A DNA stretch of 64,000 nucleotides. Origin: an uncultured Chloroflexia bacterium (lineage in GTDB: Bacteria; Chloroflexota; Limnocylindria; QHBO01). Below are positions 57,301-60,300 of the stretch, in pieces (position 1 is the first letter of the stretch; every line of letters begins with the position of its first letter). Made by a program: the position numbers. Location: NCBI GenBank assembly GCA_963827475.1, contig CAWHAZ010000005.1:244259-308258 (forward strand). Direction: 5' to 3'.

Positions 57301-60300
57301 TCGGTCCGAAGCGCCTTCCATACAGGAGCGACTCGTCGGTCTGATGCGAGCACGAACCCCTCATCGGTGGCGGACGGCCCTGATCCGCCTGCTCGCCGTC
57401 GCGCTGCCGTCGCTGCTGCTGGCGGGCTGCATCTTCCCGCCCGAGCCGGCGACGACCGAGGCCGACGAAGTCCGGACCCTGTTCCTGGTCATCTTCTTCC
57501 TCGGCGCGGTGGTCTTCATCGGGGTGGAGGGCTTCCTGCTGTACGCCGTCTTCCGCTACCGCCGGCGCGACGACCGGCTGCCGGTCCAGCACCACGGCAA
57601 CAGGAAGGTCGAGATCGTGTGGACGGTGATCCCGACCATCATCGTGCTCATCCTCTTCGTGACCAGCATGATCACCCTGGGCAACATCAGCGCCCGAAGC
57701 GACGACGCGCTGGTGATCGAGGTCGAGGGCCAGCAGTTCTCGTGGTCGTTCCGCTACGACAACGGCTACACCGTGGTCGCCGACCCGCCGGACCCGCCGG
57801 CGATGGTCGTTCCAGTTGGCCAACCAATCCGGCTGATCCTCCGCAGCGACGACGTCATCCATTCGTTCTTCGTGCCGGCGTTCCTGACGAAGATGGATGT
57901 CATTCCATTCGGCCAGGACCAGCGGCCGAACGAGCTGGAGTTCACCGTCACCGAGCCGGGCACCTACCGCGGCCAATGCGCGGAGTTCTGCGGCGATCTG
58001 CACGCCGACATGACCTTCACCGTGCAGGCGATGCCGCCGGCCGAGTTCGCGACCTGGCTGGAGGAAGCGTCCGCCGCGACGCCCCCGCCGCCGGAACCGT
58101 CCATCCCGCCGGACATCCACGTCGTGGAGCTCAGCGCCGAGGACATCGCCTTCGACCGCCTCGACCTGGAAGTGCCCGCCGGCGAGCCGTTCGTGATCCG
58201 CTTCACCAACCTCGAGGATGTCGTCCACAACGTTTCCGTCTATGACGACGACACCACGATCTTCGAGGGGCCCGAGGTCACCGGCCCGGACGCGACCATC
58301 GATTACCTCATCCCGGCGCTCGAGCCGGGGGAGTACCTCTACATCTGCGACTTCCACCCGATCCCGCAGATGACCGGTACCCTGACCGCGAACTAGGAGC
58401 AGCACCGACACCGATGGCGACGACCACCCTGGCACCCGAGGGCAAGGCGGCCTACGAGCGTTCGTGGGTCCTTGACTGGCTGACCACGGTCGACCACAAG
58501 AAGATCGGCGTCCTGTACATCGTCAACTCGTTCGTCTTCTTCTTCTTCGCCGGGCTGCTGGCGCTGGTGATCCGCAGCGAGCTCGCTGTCCCGGGCCTCC
58601 AGTTCGTCGACGAGAGCACGTTCAACCAGTCGTTCACGATGCACGGGACGTTGATGATCTTCCTGTTCATCGTCCCGATCTTCTCCGGGTTCGGGAACTA
58701 CGTCGTCCCGCTCATGCTCGGCGCGCCGGACATGGCCTTCCCGAGGATCAACGCCCTGTCGTTCTGGATGCTGCCGCTCGGCGGGCTGCTGATCATCTCC
58801 GGCTACCTGGTCGGCGGCGCCGCGGCGGGCGGCTGGACCGGCTACAACCCGCTGACCCAGGAGAACTTCTCGCCGGGCGACGGCACCGACCTGTGGATCA
58901 TGGGCCTGGCGGTGGTCGGCACCGCGTCCATCCTCGGATCGGTCAACTTCCTGACCACCATCTTCAAGATGCGGGCCCCGGGGATGACCCTGTTCCGGAT
59001 GCCGATCTTCGTGTGGACCGTGCTCGTCACCCAGTCACTCATCCTGCTCGCCACCCCGGTCATCACCGCCGCCCTGATCGCCCTGTTCATCGACCGCAAC
59101 TACGGTGGGTCGTTCTTCGACCCATCGGTCGGTGGCGACCCGGTCCTGTGGCAGCACCTGTTCTGGTTCTTCGGCCACCCGGAGGTCTACATCGTCATCC
59201 TGCCGGCGCTCGGCGTCGTGAGCGAGGTGCTGCCGACGTTCAGCCGCAAGCCGCTGTTCGGGTATCACGCCTTCGTGTGGGCCACCATCGGCATCGGTCT
59301 GCTCTCATTCAGCGTCTGGGCCCACCACATGTTCACCACCGGCGTGGTGTTCCTCCCGTTCTTCACGTTCATGACCGCCCTGATCGCGATCCCGACCGGG
59401 GTGAAGATGTTCAACTGGCTGGCCACCCTGTGGCGCGGGTCCCTGGTGTTCACGACCGCCATGCTGTTCGGGCTCGGCATCGTCAGCATGTTCCTGATCG
59501 GCGGCATCAGCGGGGTGATGCTGGCCTCGGCCCCGGTCGACTTCCACCTCCAGGACACGTACTTCGTGGTCGCCCACCTGCACTACGTGTTCTTCGGGGG
59601 CGCGGCGATGGGCGTCTTTGCGGCGACGTACTACTGGTTCCCGAAGATGAGCGGCCGCCTCCTGAACGAGACGCTGGGCAAGATCCATTTCGCGATGCTG
59701 TTCGTCGGGTTCAACGCGACGTTCTTCGTCCAGCACATGCTCGGCATCCAGGGCATGCCCCGCCGGGTGGCCGACTACGCGGCCGATGCGGGCTGGACCG
59801 AGATGAACCTCATCTCGACGGTGGGCGCGTTCCTGATCGCGGCGTCGATGGTGCCGTTCGTCGTGAACGTCGTCACCTCGCTGATGAACGGGCCGAAGGC
59901 GGGCGACGACCCGTGGGAGGGCAACACCCTGGAGTGGGCCACCACCTCGCCACCGCCGACCTACAACTTCGACAGCCTGCCGCCGATCCGCAGCGAGCGG
60001 CCGGTCTTCGACCTCCGGCACCGCGATGACCCGATGTTCCACCCCGAGCTGGCCCATGCGAAACCGGCCACCACCTCGGAGGGTTCGGACCGATGAGCAC
60101 CCACGCGTCCGCCGCCCAGGCACCGACCCGCCGCCAGGGTGGGTTCCCGATCCCGCTGGTCGGGATGCTGCTGTTCATCAGCTCGGAGGTGATGTTCTTC
60201 GGCGGCCTGTTCGCCACCTACTTCTCGGCCCGCGCCTCGTTCGCCGGCGAGTGGGGACCCCCGCCACCGGCCCCGGAGCTGGAGTTCTTCCCGCTTCCGG

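Follow-up and report, generated by a model that had tools for sequence, protein, structure and literature searches.

In a 64,000-nucleotide stretch of DNA from an uncultured Chloroflexota bacterium (hereafter the window), we identified a heme-copper oxidase subunit II (CoxII) whose C terminus carries a type-1 (T1) copper cupredoxin domain, at the position equivalent to that of the fused cytochrome c of caa3 oxidases. We consider it probable, at about two chances in three, that the tethered domain of this A-family aa3-type enzyme acts as an intramolecular electron relay, used as the caa3 oxidases use their cytochrome c. We found no published description of a CoxII-cupredoxin fusion in a literature coverage mostly of journals available without subscription. 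The fusion conserved in two bacterial lineages thus appears to be undescribed, the T1 type of carrier and the caa3-style tethering each being already known.

The fused gene (coxII, or ctaC; 57344..58396, plus strand) is uninterrupted in the ORF list and in translation, and it encodes 350 amino acids followed by a stop codon. The protein starts with a signal peptide (57344..57430, plus strand), modelled as a helix at residues 8-30 and ending in a lipobox, LLLAGC, in which, among 48 homologs, C29 is invariant and G28 is conserved to 90% or more. CoxII would therefore be a lipoprotein-type subunit II, presumably lipid modified. Two transmembrane (TM) helices (residues 38-73 and 87-116; 57455..57691, plus strand) come next, matched by Pfam COX2_TM (residues 34-109, E 1.4e-12) and by AlphaFold helices at the same residues. 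The cytoplasmic loop between them contains RYRRRDDR, and RYRRRDDRLP is invariant or nearly so in the alignment of homologs. The extracytoplasmic CuA cupredoxin domain (57701..58036, plus strand), modelled as a beta domain, matches Pfam COX2 (residues 154-229, E 6.5e-19). Its ligand set is complete, with H173 (57860-57862) in HSFFVP and the others in the loop CAEFCGDLHADM (residues 212-223; 57977-58012), which reads C212-x-E214-x-C216-x3-H220-x2-M223; all six ligands are invariant in 48 of 48 sequences. TM layout, CuA ligands and a score of 190.5 bits on the NCBIfam CoxB model TIGR02866 (cutoff 147.7) identify the window protein as subunit II (CoxB/CtaC) of an A-family heme-copper oxygen reductase.

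Past the CuA domain, a short helix, PAEFATWLEEASAA, leads into a Pro-rich linker, TPPPPEPSIPPD. Helix and linker (58037..58114, plus strand) make up the least conserved segment of the protein; the linker residues 245-257 read ATPPPPEPSIPPD, and the model confidence (pLDDT) falls below 50 at residues 246-252. The C-terminal T1 domain occupies residues 258-350 (58115..58393, plus strand). Its first ligand, H295 (58226-58228), lies in VVHNVSVY and is directly followed by N296 (both at 58226-58231), and the remaining three are found in CDFHPIPQM (residues 335-343; 58346-58372), as C335-x2-H338-x4-M343. Two domain profiles scored above their gathering thresholds, namely Cupredoxin_1 (PF13473; residues 257-348, E 9.9e-15, 54.9 bits versus a cutoff of 27) and Copper-bind (PF00127; residues 262-348, 23.4 bits versus 21.2). 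By its modelled fold, its ligands and its Pfam matches, the domain is predicted to belong to the superfamily of T1 (blue) copper carriers that includes plastocyanin, azurin, amicyanin and auracyanin. No CxxCH heme-binding motif is present across the whole fused protein, nor did the protein give any Pfam Cytochrom_C match. A preliminary description of this DNA had proposed a CoxII with a C-terminal cupredoxin domain and without CxxCH; both proposals held, the profile searches that it had suggested were positive, and every motif it quoted was found in the protein.

In the 48 homologs, whose identity averages only 58%, H295, C335, H338, M343 and N289 of the T1 domain are invariant, and N296 is present in 47. 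Mean pairwise identity is 0.67 in the CuA domain, 0.58 in the T1 domain and 0.47 in the linker. The higher value for the T1 domain than for the linker, with ligands that are invariant or nearly so, shows that the T1 domain is under constraint. The spacing between His and Met in the T1 loop varies from 2 to 6 residues among relatives, as it also does among known cupredoxins. AlphaFold modelled the C-terminal domain as an eight-strand, Greek-key beta sandwich with high confidence (pLDDT 92.8), and the mutual placement of the two copper domains with low confidence (pTM 0.57; linker pLDDT below 50). The invariant residues and the modelled fold of the T1 domain are far more than chance would produce. 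Foldseek matched the CoxII part to CoxII of Thermus, Mycobacterium, Paracoccus and Rhodobacter, the closest being that of the Thermus caa3 oxidase (2yev_B).

The fusion was present in all 120 listed relatives from the window's own lineage, Candidatus Limnocylindria (Chloroflexota), and in all 121 checked proteins of the Candidatus Dormibacteraeota clade, none of them with CxxCH. Clustered at 50% identity, the sequences with the fusion make up at least 34 clusters. In contrast, the junction at which the cupredoxin starts is followed by a class-I cytochrome c domain in 18 of 20 more distant CoxII proteins of other phyla; L077, a caa3-type CoxII on a contig labelled Limnocylindria, is among the 18. 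The common junction follows the CuA domain and a short helix with F/Y-x-x-W, and the caa3-type relatives share that helix and diverge past it. The remaining CoxII tails in an exhaustive search were mostly unrecognisable or frame-shifted, with no further domain type. Five sequences that looked like close, standalone copies of the domain (P0121-P0125) were rejected as free proteins, being fragmentary gene calls that start inside the CuA loop.

This distribution bears on the possibility that the extension arose artefactually, through a frameshift, an assembly chimera or read-through of a gene call, or is a decaying remnant without copper binding. A frame-disrupting indel does occur nearby, in coxIII, and some database relatives (P0146 and P0192) are plainly frame-shifted. 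The fusion, however, keeps the same single-ORF layout at 52 independent genome loci, likewise free of CxxCH, and in over 240 protein clusters that come from numerous samples and a variety of sequencing platforms. Its ligands are all invariant, the domain is better conserved than the linker, and the structure model is confident. We reject an artefactual origin because the fusion is conserved across lineages, and either version of this explanation appears extremely improbable. The preliminary description would have failed if the ligands were not conserved in orthologs, if the fold were another one, or if the extension came from a frameshift or was missing from relatives. None of this was observed, and the survey of CoxII architectures that it called for placed the fusion in two deep lineages and cytochrome c in most distant CoxII proteins.

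The fused domain is a paralog of free cupredoxins. It is closest to the free lipoprotein cupredoxins of its own lineage (76 bits, 48% identity), compared with 38 bits for the fused domain of Dormibacteraeota. A mobile carrier of which a copy had become tethered would be expected to show such nearness, and the domain most probably arose by capture of a copy of one of the membrane-anchored cupredoxin carriers of this lineage. Among PDB sequences, the best match of the window domain was the cupredoxin domain of the nitrite reductase NirK (6hbe, E 5.7e-6), and auracyanin (2aan) matched with E 2.4e-5. The Dormibacteraeota homolog matched models of plastocyanin, halocyanin and amicyanin.

In the relay that we propose, the flexible Pro-rich linker would tether the cupredoxin to the CoxII C terminus at the outer membrane face. 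The T1 copper would take single electrons from an upstream donor, which may be a cytochrome c subunit of complex III, free lipoprotein cupredoxins or both, and would pass them to CuA on the same polypeptide, from where they would proceed to heme a and to the heme a3-CuB site of CoxI. In this scheme, the binding of copper is inferred, as are the path that electrons take, its direction and the donor that supplies them. This reading is supported by the complete and canonical CoxII part, in its CuA ligands and CoxB score, and by the adjacent A-family CoxI. The multiplied T1 modules of a related locus (L088), where CoxII carries two T1 domains and a CoxIV-like protein a third, also fit the role of an electron wire. 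Plastocyanin is able to reduce the CuA center of a cyanobacterial oxidase, and pseudoazurin and azurin reduce that of N2O reductase.

We looked for the upstream donor in gene neighborhoods. Three Dormibacteraeota contigs have genes for a Rieske protein, a split cytochrome b and a c-type cytochrome directly upstream of the fused coxII, in an operon-like cluster ordered Rieske, cytochrome b, cytochrome c, coxII-T1, coxI and free cupredoxin. The cytochrome c at L085 is membrane anchored and has three CxxCH motifs. In Dormibacteraeota, the cupredoxin is thus most likely a relay that follows heme c and does not replace all of it. For the window's own lineage, the search covered the 64-kb window and, in about 55 relatives, the DNA within 10 kb of the cox operon; it yielded no qcrC-like cytochrome or other upstream donor. 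Across about 987 kb of Limnocylindria cox neighborhoods, a scan for CxxCH returned zero matches, a count that represents one region repeated across genomes and is uninformative genome-wide. The Dormibacteraeota Rieske, cytochrome b and cytochrome c proteins gave no Limnocylindria match by tblastn against the window and the examined loci, no complex III was found in the neighborhood of L077, and the free cupredoxin paralogs P0129 and P0130 have no respiratory genes nearby. The earlier proposal of an oxidase wired through copper in place of heme c is thus upheld in part: a conserved T1 cupredoxin does occupy the slot of the caa3 cytochrome c, but heme c genes adjoin coxII in Dormibacteraeota. 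A copper entry point is also less exotic than that proposal supposed, because the blue-copper auracyanins are already accepted mobile carriers in Chloroflexota (PMC10873879).

The heme c genes of Dormibacteraeota would also be compatible with a T1 site that is redox active and lies off the main path. Electrons would then pass directly from the cytochrome c of complex III to CuA, and the T1 domain would be a buffer or an optional entry port for other donors, for example free cupredoxins fed by other dehydrogenases. In the actinobacterial bcc-aa3 supercomplexes, QcrC feeds CuA directly. The three-heme, membrane-anchored cytochrome c encoded directly upstream of the Dormibacteraeota coxII could do likewise, T1 being then a side branch. 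The actinobacterial aa3 models are moreover the best-scoring lineage-specific NCBIfam models for CoxII, CoxI and CoxIII, all with scores below cutoff (175.4 versus 250 for CoxII on NF050117, 759 versus 880 for CoxI and 107 versus 190 for CoxIII). Related multi-cupredoxin proteins adjoin a PQQ dehydrogenase, which shows that cupredoxins serve other dehydrogenases in these communities. We nevertheless regard an off-path role as unlikely, as the fusion is found in every checked member of two deep lineages, which argues for a core rather than an optional component, and as the domain takes exactly the place that the obligatory cytochrome c relay has in caa3 oxidases.

Less likely still is an accessory, protective or copper-handling module without electron transfer, which would stabilise or metallate CuA, in a chaperone-like role as proposed for AcoP or in the manner of CupA, a chaperone with a cupredoxin fold. 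For AcoP, a cupredoxin of Acidithiobacillus ferrooxidans, it has been proposed that it preserves the metal centres of the oxidase, either alongside electron donation or in its place (PMC10804444). The genes around the cox operon included no recognisable Sco or PCuAC gene. The window domain, however, has the invariant classical His/Cys/His/Met set together with the His-Asn hallmark of electron-transfer cupredoxins, and the sequence matches are to plastocyanin, halocyanin and amicyanin models for the Dormibacteraeota homolog and to auracyanin and the T1 domain of NirK for the window protein. Copper chaperones use other, metal-releasing ligand sets, such as the Cys/Met site of CupA.

The closest known parallel to the proposed relay is the CoxII of caa3 oxidases (Thermus thermophilus 2YEV chain B, Bacillus CtaC, Rhodothermus). 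The common layout consists of two TM helices, CuA, a short helix with a linker, and a tethered one-electron carrier outside, which begins at the same junction in both. 2yev_B is the best solved match to the CoxII part (E 9.7e-18, 37% identity), and the window also has an adjoining Caa3_CtaG gene. The carrier is a class-I cytochrome c with CxxCH in caa3 and a T1 copper cupredoxin without CxxCH here, which sets the window protein apart from caa3 subunits II. The window enzyme would hold four copper atoms and no heme c.

Auracyanins A and B of Chloroflexus and Roseiflexus, from the same phylum, similarly expose a membrane-tethered T1 copper on the outer face. Their identity to the window domain is 19-28%, 2aan being the best carrier-type PDB match. 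The ligand loop, as aligned, is C-x2-H-x4-M here and C-x4-H-x3-M (CTVPGHYPLM) in auracyanin A. The window domain comprises about 93 residues tethered via CoxII, whereas auracyanins have about 140 residues and their own lipid or TM anchor. The domain would work in an auracyanin-like manner and, judging from its sequence, falls outside the strict auracyanin family. Three-domain copper nitrite reductases (6tfd, 6hbe and 9cck) likewise tether a cupredoxin, and sister enzymes tether a cytochrome c. NirK and CoxII may thus follow the same evolutionary logic, in which a redox enzyme captures its own donor as an extra domain, but the NirK acceptor is a T1 copper, while the host enzyme here is a heme-copper oxidase and the acceptor would be CuA. 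AcoP is also a membrane-anchored cupredoxin with His/Cys/His/Met ligands. It is encoded with an aa3 oxidase, binds that oxidase and is reduced by a diheme cytochrome c (PMC10804444). Unlike the fused domain, it stands alone as a polypeptide held by a TM anchor of its own, has a green T1.5 site with a very high potential (+566 mV) and is specific to acidophiles.

Archaeal copper donors include sulfocyanin SoxE in the SoxM complex of Sulfolobus and halocyanin with the ba3 oxidase of Natronomonas. In these systems, blue copper replaces cytochrome c between the Rieske/cytochrome b complex and the heme-copper oxidase. To our knowledge, these donors are separate subunits or proteins, none of them fused to subunit II. 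The comparison with them covered the halocyanin and plastocyanin NCBIfam matches of the Dormibacteraeota homolog. Plastocyanin-like proteins of Thaumarchaeota have also been described as copper-based donors (PMC9038741). Finally, the CtaC of actinobacterial aa3 oxidases is a lipoprotein-type subunit II, as here, and the leading structural matches include mycobacterial CtaC. In the actinobacterial protein, no redox domain follows CuA, and electrons arrive straight from the diheme QcrC.

A broader proposal, which we hold to be doubtful, is that the path from the quinol-oxidising complex to O2 is free of heme c in Limnocylindria, running from lipoprotein cupredoxins to the CoxII cupredoxin, and that "cupredoxin-aa3" oxidases form a distinct, ancient and abundant A-family subclass, with relatives that stack two or three cupredoxin modules as a wire of copper. 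If so, this would be a bacterial aerobic chain wired through copper, so far considered, as far as we know, a speciality of some archaea. The built-in electron entry modules of heme-copper oxidases known to us are the cytochrome c domains of caa3 and cbb3, and a cupredoxin conserved lineage-wide in the cytochrome c slot would represent a third solution. Electron transfer from T1 copper to CuA could be studied in it within one natural polypeptide, and it would be the first genomic link in which a blue copper carrier of the Chloroflexota type is physically joined to the terminal oxidase, presumed to be its acceptor. Respiration would need more copper, and less heme c and iron, in Limnocylindria and Dormibacteraeota, uncultured bacteria that are abundant in soils and fresh water. 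Annotation pipelines label the fusions only as "cytochrome c oxidase subunit II", and metabolic reconstructions therefore miss the cupredoxin.

coxI (ctaD; 58414..60096, plus strand) starts 17 nt past the coxII stop codon and encodes an A-family heme-copper oxygen reductase subunit I (Pfam COX1, E 8.9e-162; TIGR02891, 731.4 bits versus a cutoff of 670.75), with a GHPEVY motif in the translation. coxIII (ctaE; 60093..60693, plus strand) is broken by a 1-bp insertion near 60323, with COX3 Pfam matches in two frames and one extra base in the alignment with L008 and L002. The gene is intact, at 205-209 residues, in L081, L087 and L088. If the frameshift is real, this operon copy in the window may be impaired. 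coxIII is followed by a gene for a small membrane protein of 114 residues (60701..61045, plus strand), without a Pfam match, whose position is kept in L081 (116 residues) and L087 (120 residues) and which is possibly the equivalent of subunit IV. A TlpA-like thiol-disulfide oxidoreductase (AhpC-TSA/Redoxin; 61125..61829, plus strand; Pfam E 6.9e-28), found at the same place in L087, L088 and L093, may reduce copper-site cysteines, by analogy with TlpA of Bradyrhizobium.

On the other side of coxII, a conserved lipoprotein of 298 residues (56331..57227, plus strand) gave no Pfam or NCBIfam match and is syntenic in L081 (296 residues) and L087 (313 residues). A scan of positions 56200-62000 revealed no promoters or terminators. 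The lipoprotein gene lies between coxII and ctaG (55273..56310, minus strand), which codes for a Caa3_CtaG-type oxidase assembly factor (PF09678, E 6.8e-73) and is syntenic in L081, L087 and L088. Heme A synthase and heme O synthase are encoded as one ORF, a ctaA-ctaB fusion (53227..55269, plus strand; COX15-CtaA at residues 88-361 and UbiA at 408-646) whose start codon is uncertain. The same ctaA-ctaB fusion is present in L081, L085, L087, L088, L091, L092 and L093.

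The coxII (ctaC) ORF was unbroken over 350 codons (window 57344-58396, + strand). The CuA ligand H173 (57860-57862, +) and the CuA ligand loop CAEFCGDLHADM (57977-58012, +) precede a helix and Pro-rich linker (58037-58114, +), and the C-terminal domain (58115-58393, +) contains VVHNVSVY (H295-N296) and CDFHPIPQM (C335, H338, M343). These coordinates were verified on the nucleotide sequence, and the CuA, linker and type-1 (T1) copper motifs quoted in the preliminary description all lay where it had placed them. CoxII exceeded the Pfam gathering scores for COX2_TM, COX2, Cupredoxin_1 (E 9.9e-15) and Copper-bind, and it scored 190.5 bits on the NCBIfam CoxB equivalog (cutoff, 147.7). 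A motif scan bore out the absence of CxxCH from CoxII and found none in any other plausible coding ORF of the 64-kb window. The signal peptide has an invariant lipobox Cys29, and the positively charged RYRRRDDR loop joins the two TM helices. Because signal peptide, loop and CuA domain match the standard subunit II orientation, the established CoxII topology would place the C-terminal domain outside the cell.

AlphaFold modeling of this domain alone from a 12-sequence alignment yielded an eight-strand beta sandwich (pLDDT 92.8, pTM 0.81), in line with its assignment as a type-1 cupredoxin in the preliminary description. Foldseek against the PDB ranked auracyanin A (2aan; E 3.2e-7, probability 1.00) at the top, followed by Roseiflexus auracyanin (6kol), amicyanin (1id2), auracyanin B and plastocyanins (probability 1.00 each). 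The same region had a pLDDT of 88 to 97 in the full-length CoxII model, whose inter-domain geometry is of low confidence (pTM 0.57, linker pLDDT <50). Mean pairwise identity was 0.67 for the CuA domain, 0.58 for the cupredoxin domain and 0.47 for the linker. As its identity is well above that of the linker, the cupredoxin domain is under purifying selection.

The nearest proteins and genome loci belonged to MAGs that carry the name Candidatus Limnocylindria or Chloroflexota. Limnocylindria, for which the names Ellin6529, Edaphomicrobia and 'Eulabeiota' are also in use, are uncultured monoderm bacteria of soils, sediments and fresh water (bioRxiv 10.1101/2021.08.23.457424). All of the 120 best homologs (53-99% identical) combined COX2 with a cupredoxin domain and had the CuA motif followed further along by C-x2-H-x(2-6)-M, none (0/120) had CxxCH, and the fusion was intact at 52 loci of the genome collection. 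An exhaustive profile search covered 1.84 billion cluster representatives, with counts taken from the top 150; among these, CuA with one T1 domain occurred in at least 34 separate 50%-identity clusters, and one divergent fusion cluster was Candidatus Dormibacteraeota. A search seeded from the latter gave the fused architecture in 120/120 matches listed, and both motifs were present and CxxCH absent in 121/121 sequences checked from that clade. The preliminary description had considered a fusion generated by a frameshift. Artefact or decay now deserves almost no weight, because the fusion is kept across homologs, loci, clusters and two clades, Limnocylindria and Dormibacteraeota; it is visibly broken by indels in the relatives L054 and L056. 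In the source records the fusion proteins carry just the label 'cytochrome c oxidase subunit II', with a single instance of 'subunit II/plastocyanin'. A third fusion group has Gln for Glu in the CuA loop (CxQxCG; proteins P0144, P0157, P0160, P0204 and P0226, and locus L093 10001-11080); P0157 has two T1 domains, and the L093 operon is similar to that of Limnocylindria.

The best solved match to whole CoxII was Thermus caa3 subunit II (2yev_B; 37% identity, 207 columns). We also compared 20 more distant CoxII proteins (32-44% identity) from Thermomicrobiales, Dehalococcoidia, Acidimicrobiales, Gemmatimonadota, Bacillota, Opitutales and one Limnocylindria-labelled contig. A CxxCH-bearing tail of 120 to 260 aa was present in 18 and lacking in 2. 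When everything from the CuA domain onward was aligned with MAFFT, the cupredoxin fusions and the CxxCH-tailed proteins shared sequence as far as the F/Y-x-x-W helix that comes after the CuA loop; past that helix they split at the same point into cupredoxin or class-I cytochrome c. The alignment shows the two tails to be equivalent in position and does not bear on descent. Since many CoxII proteins without extension were returned (48 of the top 150 in the profile search), a caa3-type and a plain aa3-type ancestor both fit. A conventional caa3-type CoxII (L077 4905-6101; COX2 and Cytochrom_C confirmed by Pfam) is encoded on a contig that binning assigned to Candidatus Limnocylindria; provided that this assignment is correct, c-type cytochromes are made by part of the class.

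The free cupredoxins retrieved by a search with the domain alone were 138 to 159 aa long, had a signal peptide and a lipobox (LAACS) and were 43-48% identical to the domain; two, P0129 and P0133, are labelled Limnocylindria and Gaiellales, respectively. The window's domain scored 74-76 bits against these free cupredoxins; with the fused domain of Dormibacteraeota it reached just 36-38 bits. The best match of that fused domain, at 47 bits, was the free lipoprotein cupredoxin of its own operon. Repeated fusion from each lineage's own carriers and later derivation of free carriers from the fused domain both fit these scores. Under either history, the fused domain is paralogous to free electron carriers anchored in the membrane, which parallels the kinship of the caa3 heme domain with soluble cytochromes c.

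The window and ~55 Limnocylindria loci (±10 kb) yielded no gene for Rieske/cytochrome b, ACIII or a c-type cytochrome, nor did respiratory genes adjoin the free cupredoxin genes. A chain without heme c is possible in this lineage. Three independent Dormibacteraeota contigs (L085 6322-15336, L091 and L092) keep the order of a combined complex III-IV cluster: Rieske, a cytochrome b6-like N-terminal part, a subunit IV-like C-terminal part, a c-type cytochrome of 330 to 354 aa, two or three small TM proteins, coxII-T1, coxI, ctaA/B, a CoxIV-like gene and a free lipoprotein cupredoxin. No COX3 gene was called in this cluster. Its cytochrome b scored 279.8 bits on NCBIfam cytb_ExtP, slightly below the 290 cutoff. 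In L085, the translated c-type cytochrome contains three CxxCH and a hydrophobic segment at its N terminus. The Dormibacteraeota chain clearly includes heme c, with the cupredoxin most likely placed between heme c and CuA. Of the earlier idea of copper instead of heme c, the cupredoxin at the cytochrome c position stands; the three-CxxCH cytochrome gene speaks against a replacement of all heme c in Dormibacteraeota. That cytochrome c reduces CuA directly, leaving the cupredoxin as a side branch or buffer, seems unlikely.

We propose that the predicted T1 copper of CoxII acts as a relay; plastocyanin with the cyanobacterial oxidase, and pseudoazurin and azurin with N2O reductase, are precedents for T1-to-CuA transfer. 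The donor, complex III cytochrome c and/or the free lipoprotein cupredoxin, would reduce the T1 Cu, probably via exposed His338, the C-terminal histidine, and the hydrophobic, Pro-rich surface around it, the usual cupredoxin electron port. The flexible linker would allow docking onto the CuA domain, and the electron would pass from T1 Cu to CuA, heme a and heme a3-CuB. The potentials generally given for auracyanin (about +200 to +240 mV) and CuA (about +240 to +260 mV) are compatible. A pathway from cytochrome c through AcoP to the oxidase has been discussed (PMC10804444). A protective or metallation role, as in the second role proposed for AcoP, is improbable.

An electron-wire function fits, because some relatives have two T1 domains on CoxII and one on a CoxIV-like subunit. 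At L088, CoxII P0143 (9087-10586, 499 aa), which represents one of the clusters in the top 150 and has two tandem T1 domains, shares its operon with a CoxIV-like protein matching Cupredoxin_1 (13326-14525, 399 aa), giving this oxidase up to three extra copper domains. Four tandem T1-motif domains without CuA occur in P0241 (L089 3827-5737) and P0210 (L090 1495-3222); the P0241 gene lies between PQQ-dependent dehydrogenase and Cyt_bd_oxida_I genes, with another small cupredoxin next. In these proteins the domains may form multi-copper 'wires', comparable to multiheme cytochromes.

We found no description of a CoxII-cupredoxin fusion in the full-text literature searched, which leaves out most subscription journals. 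The fusion is not a new category, since carriers tethered to oxidoreductases are known (caa3, cytochrome-c-tethered and cupredoxin-tethered NirK) and blue copper carriers are established in Chloroflexota. It should moderately surprise bioenergetics specialists, and it opens the connection between blue copper and the oxidase to direct test.

In the window, coxII is the first gene of the cox cluster and coxI starts 17 nt downstream; CoxI scored above the TIGR02891 cutoff and has the GHPEVY motif. coxI is followed by coxIII and by genes for a small membrane protein and a TlpA-like thioredoxin. coxIII (60093-60693) is in two reading frames, with one extra base near 60323 (CTGCTCGATC versus CTGCT-GATC in L008 and L002), and CoxIII of relatives is intact (205-209 aa); the break reflects an error of sequencing or assembly, or else the gene became a pseudogene very recently. 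The 5' side holds a Caa3_CtaG assembly factor, a fused ctaA-ctaB and a lipoprotein without assigned family. The heme A synthase CtaA (COX15) and the heme O synthase CtaB (UbiA family) share one ORF of ~600 aa (53227-55269, +), a fusion also found beside cox genes in L081, L085, L087, L088, L091, L092 and L093 and kept in Limnocylindria, Dormibacteraeota and a third group. The lipoprotein of ~300 aa in the ctaG-coxII interval (56331-57227, +; L081 8921-9811; L087 8966-9907), without a match in Pfam or NCBIfam, may be an oxidase subunit, or an assembly factor, particular to this lineage. Directly 3' of the cox genes, the TlpA-like AhpC-TSA/Redoxin protein (61125-61829, +) has a long C-terminal extension; its gene keeps this position in L087, L088 and L093, and the protein plausibly serves to reduce the cysteines of CuA and T1.
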